Shown piece by piece: positions 3,355 through 28,081 of a stretch of DNA of 33,492 nt. The position numbers were made by a program, and so were the translations under genes. This DNA comes from a virus (taxonomy: Duplodnaviria > Heunggongvirae > Uroviricota > Caudoviricetes), in IMG/VR virus record IMGVR_UViG_2660238642_000001, one strand, 5' to 3'. A model generated the notes under the pieces. The model had not been told where the DNA came from. It did no database searches and worked only from the letters and a program-made list of their open reading frames with translations. The first letter of the stretch is position 1. Every line of letters starts with the position of its first letter.

Positions 3355-3626
3355 GTATTCGTATTGAAATTGGCGAACGTTATGTCGTTACCAGTGACAG
3401 CTTTCAGTTTATTCTCCACGAGAAAAAGAGAGCGGAAAGCGGTAAAAACGCCGGTCAGGAATGGTTGGCGGTGGTTGGTTATTACCCGAAATTAAGCCAG
3501 CTCGTTTCCGGCCTGATGCATCACGATATTCTGACCGGAAGCGCAAAGTCTTTTGCTGATTTAAACGCGCAGGTTGAGCAACTCAGCAAGCGTTGTTCAG
3601 AGGCTTTGGGCTCATATGGCCGTTAA
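3351..3626 (+). CDS. Hypothetical early protein (P2 orf83 position)
   Basis: 91-aa ORF coupled to its neighbours, overlapping the start of A. Confidence 0.5.
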   Translation: MSIRIEIGERYVVTSDSFQFILHEKKRAESGKNAGQEWLAVVGYYPKLSQLVSGLMHHDILTGSAKSFADLNAQVEQLSKRCSEALGSYGR

Positions 3627-5895
3627 AGCCTCCGGGCGTTTTGTCCCTCCGTCAGCATTTGCCGCAGGCACCGGTAAGACGTTTACCGGTGCTTATGCAT
3701 GGAACGCGCCACGCGAGGCTGTCGGGCGCGAAAGACCCCTTACACGTGACGAGATGCGTCAGGTGCAAGGTGTTTTATCCACGATTAACCGCCTGCCTTA
3801 TTTTTTGCGCTCGCTGTTTACTTCACGCTACGACTACATCCGGCGCACTAAAAGCCCGGTGCACGGGTTTTATTTCCTCACATCCACTTTTCAGCGTCGT
3901 TTATGGCCGCGCATTGAGCGCGTTAATCAGCGCCATGAAATGAACACCGACGCGTCGTTGCTGTTTCTGACAGAGCGTGACCATTATGCGCGTCTGCCGG
4001 GGATGAATGACAAGGAGCTGAAAAAGTTTGCCGCCCGTATTTCATCGCAGCTTTTCATGATGTATGAGGAACTCTGCGATGCATGGGTTGATGCACATGG
4101 CGAAAAAGAATCGCTGTTTACGGATGAGGCGCAGGCGCATCTGTATGGTCATGTTGCTGGCGCTGCACGTGCTTTCAATATTTCCCCGCTCTACTGGAAA
4201 AAATACCGTAAAGGACAGATGACCACGAGGCAGGCATATTCTGCCATTGCCCGTCTGTTTAATGATGAGTGGTGGACTCATCAGCTTAAAGGACAGCGTA
4301 TGCGCTGGCATGAAGCGTTACTGATAGCTGTCGGGGAGGTTAATAAAGACCGCTCACCTTATGCCAGTAAACACGCCATTCGTGATGTGCGTGCACGCCG
4401 CCAGGCAAATCTGGAATTTCTTAAATCGTGTGACCTTGAAAACAGGGAAACCGGCGAGCGCATCGACCTTATCAGTAAGGTGATGGGCAGTATTTCTAAT
4501 CCAGAAATTCGCCGGATGGAGCTGATGAACACCATCGCCGGTATTGAGCGTTACGCCGCCGCAGAGGGTGATGTGGGGATGTTTATCACGCTGACCGCAC
4601 CGTCAAAGTATCACCCGACACGTCAGGTCGGAAAAGGCGAAAGTAAAACCGTTCAGCTTAATCACGGCTGGAACGATGAGGCATTTAATCCAAAGGATGC
4701 GCAGCGTTATCTCTGCCGTATCTGGAGCCTGATGCGCACGGCATTCAAGGATAATGATTTACAGGCCTACGGTTTGCGTGTCGTCGAGCCACACCATGAC
4801 GGAACGCCACACTGGCATATGATGCTTTTTTGTAATCCACGCCAGCGTAACCAGATTATCGAAATCATGCGTCGCTATGCGCTCAAAGAGGATGGCGACG
4901 AAAGAGGTGCCGCGCGAAACCGTTTTCAGGCAAAACATCTTAATCGGGGCGGTGCTGCGGGGTATATCGCGAAATACATCTCAAAAAATATCGACGGCTA
5001 TGCACTGGATGGGCAGCTCGATAACGATACCGGCAGACCGCTGAAAGATACTGCCGCGGCTGTTACCGCATGGGCGTCAACGTGGCGCATTCCGCAATTT
5101 AAAACGGTTGGCCTGCCGACAATGGGGGCTTACCGTGAACTACGCAAATTGCCTCGCGGCGTCAGCATTGCTGATGAGTTTGACGAGCGCGTCGAGGCTG
5201 CACGCGCCGCCGCAGACAGTGGTGATTTTGCGTTGTATATCAGCGCGCAGGGTGGGGCAAATGTCCCGCGCGATTGTCAGACTGTCAGGGTCGCCCGTAG
5301 CCCGTCGGATGACGTTAACGAGTACGAGGAAGAAGTCGAGAGAGTGGTCGGCATTTACGCGCCGCATCTCGGCGCGCGTCATATTCATATCACCAGAACG
5401 ACGGACTGGCGCATTGTACCGAAAGTTCCGGTCGTTGAGCCTTTGACTTTAAAAAGCGGCATCGCCGCGCCTCGGAGTCCTGTCAATAACTGTGGAAAGC
5501 TCACCGGTGGTGATACTTCGTCACCGGCTCCCACGCCTTCTGAACACGCCTCAGCAGTGCTTAATCTGGTTGATGACGGTGTCATCGAATGGAGTGACCC
5601 GGAGGTCGTGAGGGCGCTCAGGGGGGCATTAAAACACGGACTGAGAAGACCAAACCGCCAGCAAAGAAACGGAAGCACGTTAAAACCACATGAAATTGCA
5701 CCATCGGCCAGACTGAGCCGGTCGGAACGATTGCAAATTACCCGTATCCGCGTTGACCTTGCTCAGAACGGTATCAGGCCGCAGCGATGGGAGCTTGAGG
5801 CGCTGGCGCGTGGGGCAACAGTAAATTATGACGGGAAAAAATTCATGTATCCGGTCGCTGACGAATGGCCGGGACTCTCAACATATTATCAATGA
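3616..5895 (+). CDS. A: Rolling-circle replication initiator (endonuclease) A
   Basis: ~760 aa from the ATG at 3616 (MAVKASGRF..., matching the P2 gpA N-terminus as recalled; the track ORF begins earlier at 3574). Contains the HUH motif EPHHDGTPHWHMMLF and paired catalytic tyrosines in GYIAKYISK. Confidence 0.9.
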   Translation: MAVKASGRFVPPSAFAAGTGKTFTGAYAWNAPREAVGRERPLTRDEMRQVQGVLSTINRLPYFLRSLFTSRYDYIRRTKSPVHGFYFLTSTFQRRLWPRIERVNQRHEMNTDASLLFLTERDHYARLPGMNDKELKKFAARISSQLFMMYEELCDAWVDAHGEKESLFTDEAQAHLYGHVAGAARAFNISPLYWKKYRKGQMTTRQAYSAIARLFNDEWWTHQLKGQRMRWHEALLIAVGEVNKDRSPYASKHAIRDVRARRQANLEFLKSCDLENRETGERIDLISKVMGSISNPEIRRMELMNTIAGIERYAAAEGDVGMFITLTAPSKYHPTRQVGKGESKTVQLNHGWNDEAFNPKDAQRYLCRIWSLMRTAFKDNDLQAYGLRVVEPHHDGTPHWHMMLFCNPRQRNQIIEIMRRYALKEDGDERGAARNRFQAKHLNRGGAAGYIAKYISKNIDGYALDGQLDNDTGRPLKDTAAAVTAWASTWRIPQFKTVGLPTMGAYRELRKLPRGVSIADEFDERVEAARAAADSGDFALYISAQGGANVPRDCQTVRVARSPSDDVNEYEEEVERVVGIYAPHLGARHIHITRTTDWRIVPKVPVVEPLTLKSGIAAPRSPVNNCGKLTGGDTSSPAPTPSEHASAVLNLVDDGVIEWSDPEVVRALRGALKHGLRRPNRQQRNGSTLKPHEIAPSARLSRSERLQITRIRVDLAQNGIRPQRWELEALARGATVNYDGKKFMYPVADEWPGLSTYYQ

Positions 5896-6308
5896 TGATT
5901 GACATGAATATACTACTGAGATTAATCAGATCATCGATTGATTCCAAGATTATAGTATGGAATGGGAACCGTAAACCGCTCTGAGAGTTGTATGCATATA
6001 TGCCTGAGGGCAAAGCTTAACGTGGTTATTTTGACCAACGTCAGCTACCTAAGAGTTATGGCTGGTCTTATGCTTCTGCATTCCCACAAGCATGTGATGT
6101 GTGGGAAAATGGAGCAGGGAAATCTAAGTTAAGTTGGATTCTAATGTAATTAAGATGCCTAAGTTTGCTTATCTTTCGCTGTGACGTGGAACTTTGTTAT
6201 GATACTGCATGCATAAACAGTTGTTTTCTGCTGTTTAAATTACCAGTGAGCACTTTTGCTTGCTAAGTATAGAATGTAGTCATTTTAAACATGTTGCAAG
6301 GTAGTATC

Positions 6309-7451
6309 ATGGCTGAAGAAGCAGGGCGCTTAACATTTTTTGATGTAACGAAAGCTGGTTTTTACAATCTTAAGGATGAAGTTCAAAAAAGCACGGATAT
6401 TGTAAATATATTAGACTCCCTGTCCAACTGGGTTTGTTCTCGTTCTTTTGAAGAAACCCTACCATTGGTTGATGACTCTAGACTGCGGAAAAAGGTTTAT
6501 TGTCGAGGTGTGCATAAAGATGAAAAGACAGGCGATTATTTTTTTGTGCTTTGGAAATCAGAACTTGATGGCAATGGTAATCTTCAGGGGGTTGCGCCAG
6601 ATTCACAGGTAAATTCATCATCTAGTGACGTTAAGATGCTTTCGGATGATATGACTGATGGGGTTAAATATATTTGGGGTAAGCCATGTTATTACTGGTA
6701 CATCCCTGAGTTCAATAAATTTGCTGCAATTCGTTTCCCTCACTCAAACTCAGACACTTATCTTTTTAGTCGCTATATTAGAGATTATGCTAATTTCAGA
6801 ATGCCATATCCCGGGCGTAAAATTGCAGAAGTATGCAGACCAAATCCAGGTGGGAAAGACATAAAGTTTAGTGTTGTTACATTTGAAAGTGATGACGGAA
6901 GTTCACGAGTAAGATTTTTATTTGAAGCGCAGCAGTATATGAAAAAAGCTGGGCGTATAAATATAAAGAAGATTCGTGACTCTATAACACATATTGTAAT
7001 AAGAGATACAATTGGAGCTAAAGTTCCAGATAAAAGAGCTTGGTGGGTAAAGGCTTTTGATAAATTTCCTGTATTACGTGATGAAGTACCTAAGACTCAT
7101 AAAGAACGACAGATAGAGTTAATTATTGAAGAAAGACCAACTGAAAAGCAAATTGACGAACTTTTCGATTTTTATGAAGAGGATTATGCTTTCGGCTCTT
7201 CTTGGAACAATATCGGCTTCAAACAGGATGGTAAGAATGGGCAGACTAAGTGGTTAGATGAATATGTTATGCGTGATTATTTGAATGCTACTTATACTGT
7301 AAATGATAACGCACATATCTCGGCTGAGAAATTGGCAGAGTTAATTAATGATAAACGAAAAGAACTCGTAAGTGGTCTCGATGGTTATGAGATTGATAAA
7401 ACTCAAGTTATACCTTCGGGAAATAACAATGAGGTCGCTATAGGAGGATGA
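6309..7451 (+). CDS. Hypothetical soluble protein, first gene of the island-1 two-gene operon (candidate defence protein)
   Basis: ~380-aa ORF in a clearly AT-rich island. The ATG at 6309 is preceded by AAGG; the track start is 6291. No Walker, RT, or nuclease motifs recognised. An Rx4H string (RDSITH) is present but not diagnostic. The stop is 1 nt from the start of the next gene. Confidence 0.6.
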   Translation: MAEEAGRLTFFDVTKAGFYNLKDEVQKSTDIVNILDSLSNWVCSRSFEETLPLVDDSRLRKKVYCRGVHKDEKTGDYFFVLWKSELDGNGNLQGVAPDSQVNSSSSDVKMLSDDMTDGVKYIWGKPCYYWYIPEFNKFAAIRFPHSNSDTYLFSRYIRDYANFRMPYPGRKIAEVCRPNPGGKDIKFSVVTFESDDGSSRVRFLFEAQQYMKKAGRINIKKIRDSITHIVIRDTIGAKVPDKRAWWVKAFDKFPVLRDEVPKTHKERQIELIIEERPTEKQIDELFDFYEEDYAFGSSWNNIGFKQDGKNGQTKWLDEYVMRDYLNATYTVNDNAHISAEKLAELINDKRKELVSGLDGYEIDKTQVIPSGNNNEVAIGG

Positions 7452-7452
7452 T

Positions 7453-7959
7453 GTGATAATAAAGATCCTTATTGGGATTCTCATGGCCTTCGTTCTGCTT
7501 GTTGGCGGTTTTAGCATTTCAGAAAGCGTCAAATATTCATATGTTGTTGATCTTCTTGGTGTTTTGCAAAATACGTCCGCGATGATTTTTGCAATTGCTG
7601 GTATTTGGCTAGCTTATCTCTATCCAAATGCAATCGCTGGTTTGATGAAATCTGAAAAAGTGGATTTTTTAGCAAGCAAAAGTGAAGCGAAGCGCATAGA
7701 AGGTATGATTCTTATTATCATTATGTCCGCTACTGTATTAATTTTTATTATTGCTTTTTACGCATTTAATGCTGTTCTCCGCGGTACGGATTTCTATGCG
7801 AACAATCGTCACCTTATTAAAGGTGTGAGTTGTGTATATATCTTGAGTATATTACTGACTCAACTGTCATGCGTTATTGTTCTTATTTGGAGAAATGTCT
7901 CGTTTATAAATAGGTTGTATACAGTAATAAACGAAAAAGAATTGGAGGAAAAGTTATAG
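7453..7959 (+). CDS. Small 4-TM integral membrane protein, translationally coupled partner
   Basis: GTG start 4 nt after AGGAGG (7443-7448) and 1 nt after the upstream stop. 168 aa with four hydrophobic stretches of ~20 residues (IIKILIGILMAFVLLVGGFSI, AMIFAIAGIWLAYLY, MILIIIMSATVLIFIIAFYAF, VSCVYILSILLTQLSCVIVLIW). Confidence 0.6.
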   Translation: MIIKILIGILMAFVLLVGGFSISESVKYSYVVDLLGVLQNTSAMIFAIAGIWLAYLYPNAIAGLMKSEKVDFLASKSEAKRIEGMILIIIMSATVLIFIIAFYAFNAVLRGTDFYANNRHLIKGVSCVYILSILLTQLSCVIVLIWRNVSFINRLYTVINEKELEEKL

Positions 7960-7991
7960 CGAACGGCATTTAATGCTGTTTTAATGATCTT

Positions 7992-8030
7992 AAGGGGTGT
8001 TTTTAATGCACCCCTTTCATGATTTTTTTT
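7992..8030 (+). terminator. Rho-independent terminator closing the island-1 two-gene operon
   Basis: Perfect 8-bp stem AAGGGGTG / CACCCCTT with a 9-nt loop, followed within 6 nt by a T8 run. Confidence 0.55.
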
Positions 8031-8076
8031 AGTGTTTGTTGTTTTTAATAAGAATTGTGAATTAACAGGAGAGGAT

Positions 8077-8808
8077 GTGATACACATAACAAAGCCAGGA
8101 ATTTTATTTAAGTATCGTAAGTTTGATAAAAACAATCTGAAGCTGTTATTGAATCGTGAGTTATGGTTTGCAAAACCAGATACTCTTAATGATCCTTTTG
8201 AAGCAAATTCTTCATTTTCAAATGTGCTTGATGCTGTTTGGAAACATTATCCACTGCCTCTTGATATGAGAATTAAATATGAGAGATATCTTAAACAGTC
8301 ATTGCAGCAAGTCGGAATTTGTTCCTTTAGTAAAGCGAGGAAAAATCAATTGATGTGGTCACATTATGCCGATGAACATAAAGGTATTTGCATTGGCTTT
8401 AAAGAGGAGTATTTGAAGAAAGCTGGGGTTTCTTTTTTGGAAGCAGATGTGGAATATCAGGATAATTATCCCTTTGATGATATTGTTAAACGTATTCATT
8501 ATTTTGAGGATAATGAATGCCTTAACGGGTTTGATAATATTTGCGGGGATATTTTACTTTCTATTTTAACGACAAAGTACACAAGTTGGAAATATGAAAG
8601 GGAGCGCCGATTGATTGTGGAGAATTTTGGAGCAAGGAAATTTGAACCTTTAGCGGTCAATTCTATAGCTTTTGGGTTAAGAATGAAGGAAAGAGATAAA
8701 AAAACGCTACTGACTCTATTGTCAGGCCCAGAGTGGTCGCATTTGAAATGGTTTCAATCAACGAAATCATCAATTAAATACTCTTTAGATTTCATACGTA
8801 TTAAATAG
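8077..8808 (+). CDS. DUF2971-like protein (unknown function)
   Basis: LWFAKPDTLNDPFE and MWSHYADEHKGICIGF match my recollection of the DUF2971 signature. The track ORF starts at GTG 8032, but a GTG at 8077 preceded by AGGAGAGG and lying downstream of the terminator is the more likely start. Confidence 0.55.
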   Translation: MIHITKPGILFKYRKFDKNNLKLLLNRELWFAKPDTLNDPFEANSSFSNVLDAVWKHYPLPLDMRIKYERYLKQSLQQVGICSFSKARKNQLMWSHYADEHKGICIGFKEEYLKKAGVSFLEADVEYQDNYPFDDIVKRIHYFEDNECLNGFDNICGDILLSILTTKYTSWKYERERRLIVENFGARKFEPLAVNSIAFGLRMKERDKKTLLTLLSGPEWSHLKWFQSTKSSIKYSLDFIRIK

Positions 8809-9956: not shown

Positions 9957-10991
9957 TCAGCCGTTGTCAGTGTCCAGTGAGTAGTTTTTAAAGCGGATGA
10001 CCTCCTGACCGAGCCAGCCGTTTATCTCGCGGATCCTGTCCTGTAGCGGGATAAGCTCATTGCGGACAAAGACCTTAGCCACTTTCTCAATATCACCCAG
10101 CGACCCGACGTTCTCCGGCTTGCCGCCCATCAACTGAAAGGGGATGCGGTGCGCGTCCAGCAGGTCAGCGGCGCTGGCTTTTTTGATATTAAAAAAATCG
10201 TCCTTCGTCGCCACTTCACTGAGCGGGATAATTTTAATGCCGTCGGCTTTTCCCTGTGGGGCATAGAGAAACAGGTTTTTAAAGTTGTTGCGGCCTTTCG
10301 ACTTCACCATGTTTTCGCGAAGCATTTCGATATCGTTGCGATCCTGCACGGCATCGGTGACGTACATGATGTATCCGGCATGTGCGCCGTTTTCGTAATA
10401 CTTGCGGCGGAACAGCGTGGCCGACTCATTCAGCCAGGCAGAGTTAAGGCCGCTGAGATATTCCGGCAGGCCGTACAGCTCCTGATTAATATCCGGCTCC
10501 AGCAGATGAAACACGGAGCCGGGCGCGAAAGGTGCCGGCTCGTTGAAGGACGGCACCCACCAGTAAACATCCTCCTCCACGCCACGGCGGGTATATTTTG
10601 CCGGTGAGGTTTCCAGTCTGATGACCTTACCGGTAGTGCTGTAACGCTTTTCCAGAAACGCATTACCGAACACCAGAAAATCCAGCACAAAGCGGCTGAA
10701 ATCCTGCTGGGAAAGCCACGGGTGCGGGATAAACGTTGAAGCCAGAATATTACGTTTGACGTAAATCGGTGAGCTGTGATGCACGGCAGCACGCAGGCTT
10801 TTTGCCAGACCGGTAAAGCTGACCGGGGGTTCATACCATCTGCCGTTACTGATACATTCGACATAATCCAGAATGTCACGGCGGTCGAGTACCGGCACCG
10901 GATCACCAAAGGTGAATGCCTCCATTTTCGGGGCGCTGGCGGTCATTTTTTTTGCCGCAGGTTGCGGTGTTTTCCCTTTTTTCTTGCTCAT
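9957..10991 (-). CDS. Q: Portal (capsid vertex) protein
   Basis: 344 aa, the P2 gpQ length. First gene leftward of cos and followed by the large terminase gene, as in P2. Confidence 0.9.
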   Translation of the reverse strand: MSKKKGKTPQPAAKKMTASAPKMEAFTFGDPVPVLDRRDILDYVECISNGRWYEPPVSFTGLAKSLRAAVHHSSPIYVKRNILASTFIPHPWLSQQDFSRFVLDFLVFGNAFLEKRYSTTGKVIRLETSPAKYTRRGVEEDVYWWVPSFNEPAPFAPGSVFHLLEPDINQELYGLPEYLSGLNSAWLNESATLFRRKYYENGAHAGYIMYVTDAVQDRNDIEMLRENMVKSKGRNNFKNLFLYAPQGKADGIKIIPLSEVATKDDFFNIKKASAADLLDAHRIPFQLMGGKPENVGSLGDIEKVAKVFVRNELIPLQDRIREINGWLGQEVIRFKNYSLDTDNG

Positions 10992-21629: not shown

Positions 21630-24254
21630 ATGAGCACGAAATTTAAAACCGTTATCACTACTGCCGGAGCCGCAAAGCTGGCAGCCGCCACTGTCCCCGG
21701 CGGGAAAAAAGTAAACCTGTCTGCAATGGCCGTGGGTGACGGTAATGGCAAATTGCCGGTGCCGGATGCCGGTCAGACGAAACTGGTGCATGAGGTCTGG
21801 CGTCACGCTCTGAATAAAGTCAGCGTGGATAACAAGAATAAAAACTATATCGTGGCTGAACTGGTTGTACCGCCAGAAGTGGGCGGCTTCTGGATGCGTG
21901 AACTTGGTCTGTATGATGATGCCGGAACACTGATTGCGGTCGCTAACATGGCAGAAAGCTATAAGCCTGAACTGGCTGAAGGCTCCGGGCGTGCGCAGAC
22001 CTGCCGCATGGTCATTATTGTCAGTAACGTGGCGTCTGTTGAGCTGAGTATTGATGCCAGCACAGTGATGGCGACGCAGGATTACGTCGATGACAAAATC
22101 GCAGAGCATGAGCAGTCCCGCCGCCATCCTGACGCCACGCTGACAGAAAAAGGTTTTACTCAGTTAAGCAGTGCAACAAACAGCACCAGTGAAAAGCTGG
22201 CAGCAACGCCAAAGGCAGTAAAAGCAGCCTATGACAATGCTGAGAAACGTCTGCAGAAAGACCAGAACGGTGGCGATATTCCAGATAAGGGCGCTTTTCT
22301 GGACAATATTGGCGTTACCAGCCTGACGTTTATGAAACACAATGGAATGATTCCAACCACTGACAATCTTGATTCCTATGGCCCAGAAGAAAAATATCTT
22401 GGAACGTGGTCATGTCCGTCACAATCCACTGCAAAACCAGAGTCTGGTTACCCTGAAGATAAAGGCAATGGGGTTCTGGAAGTATTCAATGCTGGTCGCT
22501 TTCACTGCACACAACGCTACACCACCCGAACCGGTAATATTTACATTCGGATGCTTGATGCAGAATGGAACCCTGTCAGTCCTGTATGGAGTGCATGGAG
22601 AGCTATTACAAGCGGGACTCGCCCATTAAGCACGTCAATTGACCTGAATTCTTTAGGTGGTGCGGAACACCTGGGAATATGGCGCAATAGCAGTACATCA
22701 ATAGCCTCATTTGACCGTCATTTCCCGGAGGAAGGGAGTTTTGGACAGGGTATTCTGGAAGTCTTTGAAGGCGGTCTGTATGGGAGGATGCAACGTTATA
22801 CCACCCGTAGTGGGACTATGTACATTCGCGGACTGACAGCCTCATGGGATGCAGAAAATCCACAATGGGAGGACTGGATTGCTGTTGGGTATCAGTCCAC
22901 GGGATGGACTTATTCAGGGGATCTTGATGACCTTTTAAAGCCTGGTATTTATAGCGTCACGAAACAGGCCACAAATGCACCTGTCACCGACTCTAAAGAT
23001 CTTGCTGTTGGCTCAATAGTTGAGGTGAAAAAACGTTGTGATATTGAATCGTATATCCAGACATATACGACTGTTTCAGCAACGGATGCCTATAAAAACC
23101 GGACATTTCAGCGAACCCGCGCCAGCGGTGAAACTGACTGGGGGGAATGGGCGGAAGTATACAACTCAAAATCATTACTCACTAAATTAGGTGTCGGCGG
23201 TGTTACCGACAGGTTATCCAGTCTGGACTGGCAGACCTACGACTTTATACCGGGCAGCATGATAACTGTCAGGCTTTCAGATATGACCAATATTCCCGAT
23301 GGGATGGAATGGGGCGTCATTGATACTAACCTGATAAATATCACTGTTGGCCCCAGTGAAGGCGGAGGTGTCGCCCGTTCAATGCAGGTATGGCGCAGCA
23401 CTTCAAACAAAACCAACTATCGTTTTTTTACAGTCCGCTTATATGGCAATCCTGGGGAGCGTAGCTTCAATATTCGTCGGCTACCAATTATCGACGAAGC
23501 CCAGACATGGGAGGCAAAACAGACATTCAGTGCAGGCCTTTCTGGTGAACTGTCCGGCAATGCGGCTACAGCAACAAAGCTGAAAACGGCAAGGACAATT
23601 AACGGCGTAAAATTTGACGGCTCGGCAAATATTGAAGCGTTTCCGCCTGGTGTTCCGCTGCCGTGGCCATCAGATACACCACCTGCAGGCTATGCAATCA
23701 TGCAGGGGCAGACGTTTGATAAGGCAGCATATCCGAAACTGGCTATAGCCTATCCTTCTGGTGTTATTCCTGATATGCGCGGCTGGACAATCAAGGGCAA
23801 ACCCGCCAGTGGGCGTGCCGTATTGTCACAGGAACAGGACGGGATTAAATCGCATACTCACAGTGCCAGTGCGTCAAATACGGATTTGGGAACGAAAACA
23901 ACCAGTTCGTTTGATTACGGGACGAAGACAGTCAGTACGTTTAACTACGGAACAAAAACCACTAATACCACTGGTAACCATACACATACCATTTACAGAG
24001 GGAATGCCAATACTAATGGTGAAACCGGTAAAACAGGCTTTGACAACCCATCGTTTAATGGCACATCAGGAGCTGCCGGGAATCATGCCCACACGGTAGA
24101 TATTGGTGCACATAATCATACGGTTGGTATTGGTGCACATTCACACACGGTTGCTATTGGCTCACACGGGCACTCTATTACCGTTAATGCTACAGGTAAT
24201 ACAGAAAACACCGTCAAAAACATCGCATTTAACTATATTGTGAGGCTTGCATAA
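21630..24254 (+). CDS. H: Tail fibre protein (P2 H-like N-terminus, divergent repeat-containing distal part)
   Basis: 874 aa. The N-terminal ~190 aa resemble P2 gpH as recalled. The middle carries three ~45-aa internal repeats (QRYTTR[TS]G..YIR...W..W). The C-terminus is Gly/Thr/His-rich with HxH repeats ([32 protein letters not shown]). Confidence 0.85.
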
Positions 24255-24832
24255 TGGCTTTCAGAATGAGTGCAGAAGCACAAACTATCCGCGTTTTCAA
24301 TTTACTTGATGGAACCAATGAGTTTATTGGCGAAAGTGATGCATATATTCCGCCGCATACAGGTCTGCCTGCAAACAGTACAGATATTGCACCACCTGAT
24401 ATTCCTGCTGGTTATGCAGCCGTTTTCAATGCAGATGAAATGAAATGGGAGTTGATGGAAGATCATCGCGGAAAGACTGTCTACGAAACGAAAACGGGAG
24501 CAGCCATTTATATTTCTGAACTTGGTGCATTACCTCCAGACGTGACAGCCATTTCCCCGGATGGGGATTATCAGAAATGGAACGGAAATGCGTGGGTGAA
24601 TGATGAGAATGCAGAGCATGATGCACTTGTCAGAGCGGCGGAGTCTCAGAAGAAAGAGCAGATTGCATATGCCGGTGAAATTATTGGCACTCTGCAGGAT
24701 GCTGTCGATTTAGATATGGCTACCGAGGAAGAAAAGTTAAGCCTGACACACTGGAAAAAATACCGTGTGCTACTGAATCGCGTTCAGCCGGAAAATGCTC
24801 CGGATATAGAATGGCCAGAAATGCCGCAATAA
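24254..24832 (+). CDS. G: Tail fibre assembly chaperone
   Basis: 192 aa immediately after H with a coupled start. Confidence 0.75.
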
Positions 24833-24902
24833 ATCGTATTAGCTCTGGTATGAGATTACTCATCTATGGCACAGAGTAAAACCTAATCAGGCTGTCCGTT
24901 CC

Positions 24903-24918
24903 GTGCCAGGAGCGGACG
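24903..24918. repeat. Copy 1 of a direct repeat GTGCCAGGAGCGGACG (within a ~27-bp imperfect repeat that forms a hairpin)
   Basis: Exact 16-mer seen again at 25827-25842. The surrounding sequence GTCCGTTccgtgccagGAGCGGAC can fold as a stem-loop. Lies just downstream of G. Confidence 0.6.
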
Positions 24919-25229
24919 TTGTAAAGTTTATTTGGAGAATAATGGTTAGAAGAACTATGTAGATCATAGCCCTCTAAAGTCAGTAGTCTTACACCATATA
25001 AATGGTCATTTAGAGATAGTACACCACCTACAAAAAACGAGATAAAGCGTGCAAGCGGCATGAAGATACATAAAATACTCCATTCTGCACTTGATGTTAG
25101 GATGAATACTGACACTCGCTTTGTAAAGATAAAGATGATCTTGAGGATGATTAGTTTATTAATTATCTCCAATGTTTGTTATTTTGTGATGATAAAGATT
25201 CTCTGGATTAATAGGATGGTAATTCAATT

Positions 25230-25257
25230 AAAAGAGACCTTATAGAAGGCCTCTTTT
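25230..25257. terminator. Hairpin with A-run and T-run flanks (candidate bidirectional terminator for the reverse-strand 3-TM gene)
   Basis: AAAAGAGACC ttatagaa GGCCTCTTTT: 9 of 10 complementary positions, about 55 bp beyond the 3' end of the minus-strand ORF. Confidence 0.45.
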
Positions 25258-25312
25258 AAGTTATGAGAGCTGATTTTATATTCAATAGAGTATTCTCATC
25301 GAAGAAATAACC

Positions 25313-25660
25313 TCATAAAATGTAAAGACAGCCAGCAAAAAAAATACAGATAAAGATAAGGGAAATAGCACACTTAACTAAGGACTGAATCCCCCGAGGT
25401 GTTCCCCATGGTTTAGACATTTGGGTTATAACCCAAATAAATAGGGCCATAAAACAGCAAACACCAGCCAATCCGAGCAGAGATATTATGACAACTCCAA
25501 ACAGATTTCCAACATCTAGTTTATCTGTTTTTGCAACTAGGGTTAACAAACCAGCAATAATAGTTGCTATCGATATTCCCGCAATGGTTGTGAGATCAGC
25601 GATAACAGCCAGTTTTTCTTTAGTATTTCCTTGAGTAAAAACCTCTAAAATTGATTTCAT
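25313..25660 (-). CDS. Small 3-TM membrane protein (island-2 cargo, unknown function)
   Basis: 115 aa. ATG preceded on the minus strand by AGGTGG. Three hydrophobic segments of ~22-26 residues. AT-rich, reverse orientation relative to the late operons. Confidence 0.55.
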   Translation of the reverse strand: MKSILEVFTQGNTKEKLAVIADLTTIAGISIATIIAGLLTLVAKTDKLDVGNLFGVVIISLLGLAGVCCFMALFIWVITQMSKPWGTPRGIQSLVKCAISLIFICIFFAGCLYIL

Positions 25661-25826
25661 GGAAAATAACCACCTACTATCGATTATATTCAGGAACTTT
25701 TTATCATAACAATATCAGATAGATAAGGATATTGTAATATTTTGGATGATTTAAACTTACTTTTGTAACTCTAATGTCCACTTTTCGCTCACAGCGGACC
25801 TTTAGCTCAGTTACCTCGTCCGCTTT

Positions 25827-25842
25827 GTGCCAGGAGCGGACG
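25827..25842. repeat. Copy 2 of the direct repeat GTGCCAGGAGCGGACG with overlapping alternative hairpins
   Basis: GCGGAC..GTCCGC and CGTCCGCT..AGCGGACG are mutually exclusive stems in gcggacctttagctcagttacctcgtccgctttgtgccaggagcggacg. Lies between the divergent island-2 genes. Confidence 0.6.
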
Positions 25843-26102
25843 CTAACCTGATTGACGGGAAATCATATTAAGTCGGCATAAAAAATTAGAATATCTTTAG
25901 TGATTATTACTAATGTGTGTGTATAACTTATGCCTAATTTATCGCTCCGGCTGAGGGAATCTTGCCTCCGCTGTCACTTTTAGGTATGTTAACAACTATT
26001 TTTACAGTGGTTCCGAGTTATGCTATCTAACAGATTACTTGAACCGAGTCCGTTTATCAGTATGGCGTTTTATATGCTCAGAGTCCATCCAAGGAGTGAC
26101 TT

Positions 26103-26579
26103 TTGAAATTTGAACAAATCTATAAAAATATTACTGGCCTTAGCTGTCCCATATTCGGGATTCAGTGGAATGCTCCAATAATAGAAACTGACGAAGCGAA
26201 GAAGATCGTCATTTTTCTTGAGGACAAGCGCGTTCTTTTCAATCCTGTCGACATGGAGGGTGCTAGTCATTGCACTTCGAGTGTTATCAACATTAGATCT
26301 GAATTGACTAAAGTCCTACAAGGTTTGCCGAGCGATTCACATTTAGCAAAACAATTAAGGAAAATGAGAAAAGCATGCCAAGAATTCTGTGACAGCGTTG
26401 GCTCCCCTCACTTTATCCAACTTGATCATCCTGTTCAAATATCCATACTTGAGCGAGCCCTTTTTAAACTGCGACAAAAGTGTGGTAACTCTCTGGCAGA
26501 AATAGCGGTTACCTATGGTCTTGATGTTGATGACGGATTGGCCAGTATTATCCCTTTTAATAATCCCAGTAACATATAG
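26103..26579 (+). CDS. Hypothetical protein (island-2 cargo, unknown function)
   Basis: 158-aa ORF (track coordinates), AT-rich, non-canonical start, divergent from the 3-TM gene and followed by a strong terminator. No recognisable motifs. Confidence 0.5.
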   Translation: MKFEQIYKNITGLSCPIFGIQWNAPIIETDEAKKIVIFLEDKRVLFNPVDMEGASHCTSSVINIRSELTKVLQGLPSDSHLAKQLRKMRKACQEFCDSVGSPHFIQLDHPVQISILERALFKLRQKCGNSLAEIAVTYGLDVDDGLASIIPFNNPSNI

Positions 26580-26766
26580 CAATGACTATGAATTTGCTTG
26601 CTGGATTAATTATCATGCAACCGACAGTTTTGGGTCGGAAGCGGTTAGCAAATTAGTCATTAGTGAGTCGTTATGTCCGTTCATCGCTCAAAGCAGACTG
26701 TCAGATTTAATAGCGTTTTGATTATGTAACTTGTCAGTTGGAAGCTGAGTGAGAACAAATCAAGGC

Positions 26767-26795
26767 AGGCGGGCTGATTGCCCGCCTTTTCTTTA
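26767..26795 (+). terminator. Rho-independent terminator separating island 2 from the FI late operon
   Basis: Perfect 8-bp stem AGGCGGGC / GCCCGCCT with loop TGATT, followed by TTTCTTTATTT. Confidence 0.65.
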
Positions 26796-26890
26796 TTTGT
26801 TGTTTCATCCACTGGCCAGCCAGGTCAAATAGCGTCTCATGCTCTGCACAACAGAAAATAGTTGCACCCATTAACCACGGAGTTAAACGG

Positions 26891-28081
26891 ATGAGTGACT
26901 ATCATCACGGCGTGCAGGTGCTGGAGATTAACGACGGCACCCGCGTCATTTCCACCGTATCCACGGCCATTGTCGGCATGGTCTGCACGGCCAGCGATGC
27001 GGATGCGGAAACCTTCCCCCTCAATAAACCGGTGCTGATAACCAATGTGCAGAGCGCAATTGCAAAGGCCGGTAAAAAAGGCACGCTGGCGGCATCGTTG
27101 CAGGCCATCGCCGACCAGTCAAAACCGGTCACCGTTGTCGTGCGTGTGGAAGACGGCACCGGCGACGACGAAGAAACGAAACTTGCGCAGACCATTTCCA
27201 ATATCATCGGCACCACCGACGAAAACGGTCAGTACACCGGACTGAAAGCCCTGCTGGCGGCGGAGTCGGTAACCGGTGTTAAACCGCGTATTCTTGGTGT
27301 GCCGGGACTGGACACCAAAGAGGTTGCCGTCGCACTGGCATCAGTCTGTCAGAAGCTGCGCGCTTTCGGGTATATCAGCGCATGGGGCTGTAAGACCATT
27401 TCCGAGGTGAAAGCCTACCGCCAGAATTTCAGCCAGCGTGAGCTGATGGTCATCTGGCCGGATTTCCTCGCATGGGATACGGTCGCCAGTACCACCGCCA
27501 CCGCGTATGCCACCGCTCGTGCACTGGGCCTGCGTGCTAAAATCGACCAGGAGCAGGGCTGGCATAAAACGCTGTCCAACGTCGGGGTAAGCGGTGTTAC
27601 CGGCATCAGCGCCTCTGTATTCTGGGATTTGCAGGAGTCCGGTACCGATGCTGACCTGCTTAACGAGTCAGGCGTCACAACGCTGATTCGCCGTGACGGT
27701 TTCCGCTTCTGGGGTAACCGTACCTGCTCTGATGACCCGCTGTTCCTCTTTGAAAACTACACCCGCACCGCGCAGGTGCTTGCCGACACGATGGCTGAGG
27801 CGCACATGTGGGCGGTGGACAAGCCCATCACCGCAACGCTGATTCGCGACATCGTTGACGGCATCAATGCCAAATTCCGTGAGCTGAAAACAAACGGCTA
27901 TATCGTGGATGCGACCTGCTGGTTCAGCGAAGAATCCAACGATGCGGAAACCCTCAAGGCCGGAAAACTGTATATCGACTACGACTATACACCGGTGCCT
28001 CCTCTTGAAAACCTGACCCTGCGCCAGCGTATTACCGATAAATACCTGGCAAATCTGGTCACCTCGGTTAACAGCAATTAA
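26891..28081 (+). CDS. FI: Contractile tail sheath protein
   Basis: 396 aa, the P2 gpFI length, followed by the tube gene. Confidence 0.9.
   Translation: MSDYHHGVQVLEINDGTRVISTVSTAIVGMVCTASDADAETFPLNKPVLITNVQSAIAKAGKKGTLAASLQAIADQSKPVTVVVRVEDGTGDDEETKLAQTISNIIGTTDENGQYTGLKALLAAESVTGVKPRILGVPGLDTKEVAVALASVCQKLRAFGYISAWGCKTISEVKAYRQNFSQRELMVIWPDFLAWDTVASTTATAYATARALGLRAKIDQEQGWHKTLSNVGVSGVTGISASVFWDLQESGTDADLLNESGVTTLIRRDGFRFWGNRTCSDDPLFLFENYTRTAQVLADTMAEAHMWAVDKPITATLIRDIVDGINAKFRELKTNGYIVDATCWFSEESNDAETLKAGKLYIDYDYTPVPPLENLTLRQRITDKYLANLVTSVNSN

Follow-up and report, generated by a model that had tools for sequence, protein, structure and literature searches.

The closest described relatives of the gene considered here are effectors of bacterial anti-phage defence. 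In a December 2025 preprint, operons that combine a TIR gene with a DUF6650 gene are named 'type VI Thoeris' and are reported to protect against phage. Their TIR proteins produce 2'cADPR upon infection, external 2'cADPR stops the growth of cells with the system, and for the DUF6650 effector, ThsG, the model is a hexameric tube whose pockets are positively charged. The Escherichia coli ThsG effectors tested have transmembrane (TM) helices (TM-DUF6650), whereas those of Bacillus consist of DUF6650 only and still defend. The site of interest has been described as well: the position between genes G and FI within the P2 tail genes (the Z/fun locus) is a documented accessory and defence hotspot (PMC13586616), and P2 hotspots also carry non-defence cargo (PMC9122126). 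The window, by which we mean the whole 33,492-nucleotide stretch of the viral record IMGVR_UViG_2660238642_000001, is a P2-like prophage, and its G-FI position holds an island (24833-26890) made up of two cassettes with the same boundary palindromes, the second of which carries an intact DUF6650 gene. We think it somewhat probable that two cassettes, acquired independently, make up this island as an array, namely a functional stand-alone DUF6650 defence gene and a decayed cassette 1.

The 158-residue protein encoded in cassette 2 matches Pfam family DUF6650 (PF20355) with 60.7 bits against a cutoff of 27 (E = 2e-16). A first-pass annotation made from the sequence alone had found no recognisable motif in either island protein; this was wrong for the 158-residue protein, while the membrane protein of cassette 1 has no Pfam domain. 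PGAP gives the gene identical coordinates and the name DUF6650 family protein, and the start is conserved in homologues. All residues conserved across the family are kept (G12, P16, G19, W22, L39, R43, L45, E52, S60, R65, R124, G128 and L146). Together with these residues, the protein shares PF20355, the size and the DUF6650-only architecture with the defending Bacillus effectors, and it lacks the N-terminal TM helices of the tested E. coli ThsG proteins. An AlphaFold2 model of the monomer is all-helical (pLDDT 82), and the conserved arginines would be compatible with, although no proof of, ThsG-like charged pockets between protomers. Close relatives are stand-alone proteins of 155-160 residues that are 46-95% identical and occur in Gamma- and Betaproteobacteria. 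A profile search gave 1,749 clusters at 50% identity, the best 150 listed being mostly 150-180 residues long, and the protein falls in PHROG 29952, which has no assigned function. The ratio of nonsynonymous to synonymous substitution rates (dN/dS) of the gene is 0.08-0.40 and its coding region is more conserved than its flanks; judged from these alignments, the gene is under purifying selection.

The island is bounded and divided by the palindrome GTCCGCT-N10-AGCGGAC. Four copies are observed in the island (starts 24894, 25776, 25818 and 26675), against about 0.1 expected by chance, and no further copy was found elsewhere in the window with one mismatch per arm allowed. The loops are of two types, L (yTGTGCCArr) and R (CnTCGCTCnC), the latter being a diverged inverted copy of the former, and their order is L, cassette 1, R and, past a spacer of 18 nt, L, cassette 2, R. 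The island thus parsed is two separate cassettes, each between 24-nt imperfect palindromes, and the earlier description of its two genes as one divergent unit has to be abandoned. The outer L and R correspond to what the GenBank entries of the P2-EC67 Z-region (AJ512683/AJ512685) annotate as 'left' and 'right inverted repeat'. As in P2 Z/fun, the foreign open reading frames (ORFs) of the window lie between G and FI and are flanked by these same left and right inverted repeats, but the cargo differs and here forms two tandem cassettes joined via an R-spacer-L junction. Neither island protein matches P2 or any of 50,697 GenBank phage records by tblastn, so nothing ties them to Z/fun itself.

Each cassette is found without the other. 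In a survey of 5,426 complete E. coli genomes, the island as query matches 141, in full in 18 and in part in 123. The two partial matches listed, A30 and KSC207, both span 24848-25799, and in the A30 prophage, the one such prophage inspected, this TM cassette alone lies directly between G and FI. The DUF6650 gene is present in 28 genomes, ten of which have it without the TM cassette, in other islands; in E. coli 14EC033 it adjoins Gabija (nuclease and helicase). The segment 25818-26704, with its repeats, is found again as one block in genomic islands of E. coli, in Pectobacterium and in a lambdoid prophage (L082, 4793-7862), where the array has the order L-TM-J-DUF6650-J-251 aa-J-GIY-YIG and the 66-bp junction J is conserved. 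Since each of the two genes occurs without the other, they are not a divergent functional pair. The further cargo of the lambdoid array comprises a gene for a 251-residue protein (6758-7513, minus strand) and one for a 275-residue LEM-3-like GIY-YIG nuclease (7950-8777, plus strand); by their position in it, both are candidate cargos of the same array type.

Cassette 1 carries the signs of decay. It had been described as holding a minus-strand ORF of 115 residues with three TM segments, a ribosome-binding site and a downstream hairpin, and all of these are present; the length, however, is not that of the family, in which the protein has 125 residues and would end near 25283 in the window. A run of eight T, seven in relatives, shifts the frame, turning the last 18 residues into eight and shortening the third helix, and the 115-residue form is recorded on one public contig only. 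Only Enterobacterales have the TM family, whose PHROG has no assigned function; dN/dS against distant copies is 0.21-0.36. Between the L site and the hairpin lie about 310 bp that are filled in part by a fragment of an ATPase gene, 89% identical to residues 498-550 of a Serratia protein. In Serratia marcescens and Enterobacter ludwigii this gene is complete and runs convergently to the TM gene. Its product scores 209 bits with the NCBIfam model ATPase_Sll1717 (NF047389), passes Pfam nSTAND1 (PF20703) marginally and reaches 55.8 bits with the anti-phage model DS41_1, far under the cutoff of 370; the Sll1717 ATPase family is located in prophage and defence hotspots. Compared with these Sll1717/nSTAND1 ATPases and with DS-41, the window keeps only the C-terminal 53 codons, and there is no intact NTPase gene beside its TM gene that could make up a STAND ATPase and membrane effector pair. 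As a gene fragment of this kind arises only by deletion, the TM cassette of E. coli goes back to a cassette with two genes. Cassette 1 would once have held a STAND-type (Sll1717) ATPase gene convergent with the gene of the 125-residue 3-TM protein; the ATPase gene has been deleted down to 53 codons and the TM gene is also frameshifted in the window, where the cassette is probably inactive or only partly active.

Two candidates were set aside in this region. The 102-residue ORF at 24864-25172 (minus strand) is rejected as a gene, having in-frame stops in the A30 and Serratia copies and no PGAP annotation, and a 561-residue protein encoded next to the TM gene in Pectobacterium is not homologous to the Sll1717 ATPase. 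In Pseudomonas citronellolis (L102, 3001-5823), a DUF4238 gene follows immediately downstream of a Sll1717-family ATPase gene; a DUF4238 protein from a P2 hotspot was shown to protect against T7 (Rousset et al. 2022).

The history of cassette 1 also bears on whether the 3-TM and DUF6650 proteins could be the two parts of a split 'DUF6650 and TM' ThsG effector encoded by one divergently transcribed system. The TM-DUF6650 fusions among the tested E. coli ThsG proteins speak for such a split, as does the adjacency of both genes in 18 E. coli genomes and in the lambdoid prophage array. We nevertheless regard it as highly improbable: the genes sit in separate repeat-bounded cassettes and are divergent, not co-transcribed; cassettes with the TM gene alone are much more frequent, and ten further E. 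coli genomes as well as other genera have DUF6650 but no TM gene with it; the earlier neighbour of the TM gene is the ATPase gene; and in the window the TM gene is frameshifted.

Outside P2-like prophages, homologues of the 158-residue protein also occur across many phyla at chromosomal sites that have no phage genes around them. Their neighbours are varied and often defence-related, including Gabija, HEPN/Toprim, AbiEii, type I restriction-modification, restriction endonuclease and RhuM genes. Among 65 species-representative loci fetched, in 58 of which a DUF6650 ORF could be called, BLAST clustering and Pfam revealed no conserved partner gene. In two Bacteroidales loci (L028, 8485-9666, and L035, 1813-2997), a HEPN/Toprim (OLD-like) protein is encoded only 4 bp downstream of a DUF6650 homologue, and this tight pairing in two genomes may represent a different DUF6650-containing system. 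DefensePredictor (PMC13092281) newly implicated DUF6650 in defence through DS-27; among its predictions of novel defence genes, at a log-odds of 6.5, is that of a 158-residue E. coli protein with this domain, WP_010377994.1. We equate this protein with that of the window from length, species and domain span only; it is absent from the DefensePredictor table of tested systems that was searched.

The lack of a linked TIR gene is what separates the locus from type VI Thoeris: neither the DUF6650 gene of the window nor those of its close relatives were found to have a ThsB/TIR gene next to them. The sole TIR linkage is seen in Pseudomonas spirodelae (L006/L012), where a 158-residue homologue of 68% identity is encoded two genes from a ThsB-type TIR gene. 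There (L006, 6001-8821) the DUF6650 gene is followed by a gene for an unknown protein of 243 residues, a ThsA_Macro gene and the ThsB_TIR gene, an arrangement that may form a Thoeris locus possessing two effectors. A phmmer search with this ThsB TIR against all locus ORFs matched the query protein only. Among 69 further neighbours of DUF6650 genes, no family matched more than two of them, and the 25 families listed include no TIR family. Because a TIR partner was sought and not found, the window gene is best classed, as far as its sequence goes, as an orphan ThsG-like effector gene and not as a Thoeris system.

If this gene is expressed, its 158-residue product would, by homology with ThsG, assemble into a ring whose arginine-lined pockets take up a small nucleotide-derived signal or some other cue of infection. 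The bound ring would arrest the growth of the infected lysogen, a protection of the abortive-infection type from which the prophage would benefit. As there is no gene nearby for a TIR protein that could make the signal, the trigger would be either a cADPR isomer provided in trans by a TIR protein elsewhere in the cell or a TIR-independent cue. DUF6650 has only just been tied to immunity, and the window shows an intact, conserved, TIR-less copy that moves as a 0.9-kb cassette, here within a P2 prophage and elsewhere within further mobile elements. This raises the question of whether Thoeris-type effectors act alone or sense the signals of TIR proteins encoded elsewhere, and of how TM-less ThsG proteins halt growth.

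A ring of this kind might also be non-toxic. A phage-borne, TM-less and TIR-less copy of a signal-binding domain that retains the candidate ligand-contact arginines could be a counter-defence decoy, captured from a Thoeris effector, that soaks up 2'cADPR in the manner of the Tad1 and Tad2 sponges and so weakens the TIR-based immunity of the host, and a hexameric ring with charged pockets, as modelled for ThsG, is an architecture also of sponges. We give this role only a slight chance. Chromosomal islands carry the same 158-residue gene next to Gabija and further defence genes, it also stands at chromosomal sites that have no phage genes close by, it is missing from all of the GenBank phage records searched, the DUF6650-only proteins of Bacillus work as effectors, and DefensePredictor scores a 158-residue E. 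coli DUF6650 protein as defensive.

Several observations weigh against the reading of the island as a stand-alone defence gene next to a decayed cassette. No TIR domain is present among the window proteins scanned, a scan limited to the island ORFs of at least 100 residues (n = 3), the G-like gene and the genes of the first hotspot (GpA-GpQ) with their flanks, and no TIR protein was found among ten neighbours of the nearest relatives and ten tightly linked neighbours of DUF6650 homologues. With no TIR nearby, the ThsG mechanism may therefore not transfer, and the route of toxicity of TM-less ThsG is left unexplained by the authors of the preprint themselves. The validated single-gene system DS-27, a 299-residue fusion of SMEK and DUF6650, does not align to the 158-residue subfamily with hhalign (probability 0.2%); the link to it was dropped and DS-27 is not used as support, because the two are not alignable. 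No promoter-like site was seen upstream of the DUF6650 gene. The AlphaFold2 model is a generic four-helix bundle that has no informative structural neighbour, and PADLOC v2, a check that the first-pass annotation had proposed, returned no match for the TM protein, the DUF6650 protein or the 102-residue ORF. For cassette 1, E. coli, Pseudomonas (beside a DUF4238 gene) and Edwardsiella also have the Sll1717 ATPase with no TM gene; the TM protein may therefore never have been the partner of the ATPase, and TM-only cassettes may be functional alone. Overall, the sequence data show the layout of the island, the domain membership, the modularity, the purifying selection, the deletion and the frameshift, while the defence function, the oligomer, the ligand, the trigger and the expression are inferred.

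These points could be taken to mean that the cargo is neutral or selfish, or serves purposes other than defence (envelope lysogenic conversion, or superinfection exclusion by the TM protein alone), and merely sits at a recombination-prone site. The missing PADLOC match, structural analogue and experimental data would fit this, as would the non-defence cargo that P2 hotspots are known to carry (PMC9122126) and the visible decay of cassette 1. It appears unlikely to us in view of the purifying selection on both genes over long distances, the status of DUF6650 as a validated defence effector domain and genomic company that consists mostly of defence genes. Both island genes had initially been put forward as candidates for defence or exclusion. 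For the 158-residue gene this stays credible on account of the ThsG family, DefensePredictor and the defence genes among its neighbours; the TM cassette has proved to be a deletion remnant that is in addition frameshifted. We retain the array of a stand-alone DUF6650 defence gene and a decayed cassette 1 as the preferred reading.

The boundary repeats have a distribution of their own. J-like junctions are present in 873 of the 5426 E. coli genomes, and 29 of 30 J-like sites sampled have no annotated feature beneath them. The three J contexts inspected are accessory regions of a Qin-type prophage and of CP4-type islands, where the J sites delimit cargo such as DUF2971 and acetyltransferase genes. 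Beyond the P2 Z locus, one- or two-gene cargo bounded by L and R is found in lambdoid prophages, CP4-type islands and a plasmid (L082, L090-L092, L099, L100, L106-L108). A DUF2971 gene is the cargo of one such cassette in E. coli AR_0149 (L092), and DUF2971 is also represented in the first hotspot of the window. As a structured RNA or single-stranded DNA element the junction finds no support in compensatory changes, its arms being conserved in sequence.

A tyrosine recombinase of 200 residues, consisting of a catalytic domain only and distantly like Xer recombinases and FimB/E-type invertases, is encoded in 848 of the 5426 genomes. L/R sites lie within 7 kb of it in five of six distinct loci sampled, against a background of the site pattern of two matches per 840 kb, and in four sampled loci (three chromosomal, one on a plasmid) its gene is located between an L and an R site. 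A recombinase of 94% identity adjoins the TM and ATPase gene pair in Enterobacter, and a recombinase remnant adjoins the DUF6650 cassette in E. coli 181.1. The window island itself contains no recombinase.

As the boundary repeats often adjoin this recombinase, an integron-like exchange platform is suggested. The arrangement resembles integron arrays in that small cassettes are separated by imperfect palindromic junctions of about 66 bp and the same cargo occurs in different arrays. It also resembles recombinase-less attC clusters, in that a small tyrosine recombinase is often near the repeats in other elements and none is present at the P2 locus. Unlike in integrons, there is no IntI-type integrase (the 200-residue recombinase falls far under the integron-integrase cutoffs), the junctions, by reading, have no GTTRRRY core and are conserved in sequence rather than in structure, and the cargo genes lie in both orientations. 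We propose only tentatively, as a possibility on which we remain doubtful, that the L/R palindromes and 66-bp junctions are the recombination sites of a cassette-exchange platform, not described as such before, on which the widespread 200-residue recombinase acts in trans, the P2 locus being a recombinase-less array and the orphan ThsG-like gene a circulating cargo. If so, the platform would move defence cassettes of one or two genes (DUF6650, DUF2971, GIY-YIG, STAND ATPase and TM proteins) among P2 Z/fun, lambdoid prophages, CP4-type islands and plasmids, and a ThsG-like cargo would be able to plug into any TIR signalling of the recipient cell. Repeat-bounded cassettes together with a small tyrosine recombinase make a concrete candidate for rapid cargo swapping at P2 hotspots. 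The inverted repeats annotated in the GenBank records of Nilsson et al. (2004, Mol Biol Evol) and the title of their paper would agree with such an exchange system. This lead, while unproven, is newer than the orphan ThsG-like gene.

The coordinates of the features in and around the island are collected in Table 1. As had been recognised at first pass, the G-FI gap of the window is an AT-rich island at the Z/fun position, with a GC fraction of 0.35-0.41 over 25001-26500 compared with 0.55-0.60 in the flanking tail genes, both of which could be identified, and it is a classic P2 defence hotspot, the locus being documented as such (PMC13586616). Elsewhere in the window, GpA is encoded at 3574-5895, the portal gene lies at 9957-10991 and the tail-fibre gene at 21630-24254. 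P2 and its relatives match only the last ~220 bp of the island (26673-26890), which include the strong terminator. The 158-residue ORF had been said to end at this terminator. Both are real, but the terminator lies 188 nt downstream of the stop codon and belongs to the P2 backbone, being present in other P2-like phages as well.

Table 1. Features of the G-FI island and its flanks, in window coordinates (RBS, ribosome-binding site).
Feature	Position	Strand	Basis or remark
Tail-fibre-assembly gene, left flank (P2 G equivalent)	24254-24832	+	Pfam Caudo_TAP, E=3e-40; annotated thus in L001 (SaT040 prophage)
Cassette 1	24894-25799		Bounded by L and R palindromes
L-type palindrome GTCCGTTCCGTGCCAGGAGCGGAC, left border of cassette 1	24894-24917		Matches 'left inverted repeat' of AJ512685
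Pseudogene fragment, last 53 codons of 556-residue Sll1717-family/nSTAND1 P-loop ATPase	24976-25134	+	tblastn
AT-rich hairpin 3' of TM gene, putative terminator	25228-25259	-	14-nt arms, 4-nt loop, 93% complementary
3-TM membrane protein ORF, 115 residues	25313-25660	-	AGGTGG RBS; three hydrophobic segments; PHROG 4155
Homopolymer T8 (coding strand), T7 in relatives	25337-25344	-	Alignment with SaT040 and A30 prophages
Promoter-like site of TM gene, TTGTTA-18-TATAAT	25683-25712	-	10/12 sigma-70-like; consensus match only
Junction J	25774-25841		R-type palindrome 25776-25799, 18-nt spacer, L-type palindrome 25818-25841
Cassette 2	25818-26704		Bounded by L and R palindromes
RBS AAGGAG	26091-26096	+	6 nt upstream of DUF6650 TTG start; read from sequence
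DUF6650 (ThsG-like) protein, 158 residues, intact	26103-26579	+	Pfam PF20355; TTG start
R-type palindrome GTCCGTTCATCGCTCAAAGCAGAC, right border of cassette 2	26675-26698		Begins conserved P2 'right inverted repeat' region
Strong bidirectional intrinsic terminator	26767-26787		8-bp stem with 7 GC pairs and T tract; conserved P2 backbone
Tail sheath gene, right flank (P2 FI equivalent)	26891-28081	+	Annotation in prophages L001/L002

An Rfam scan of the island gave only a sub-threshold IS009 match at 24604-24795 (plus strand), within the 3' end of the tail-fibre-assembly gene. With 40 bits against a gathering score of 117, it probably reflects relatedness among tail-fibre-assembly genes rather than an RNA.

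The tail-fibre gene is an intact ORF of 874 residues in the window and is annotated as frameshifted in the 99.9%-identical SaT040 prophage (L001, 1-2422). The tape-measure gene of the SaT040 prophage is frameshifted as well, while the window instead has the T8 frameshift in the TM gene. Such frameshift differences between prophage copies are homopolymer errors or real decay. The first hotspot of the window (6291-8808) contains genes that match the PADLOC candidates PDC-M18A (386 residues), PDC-M18B (168 residues) and PDC-S31 (258 residues, DUF2971).

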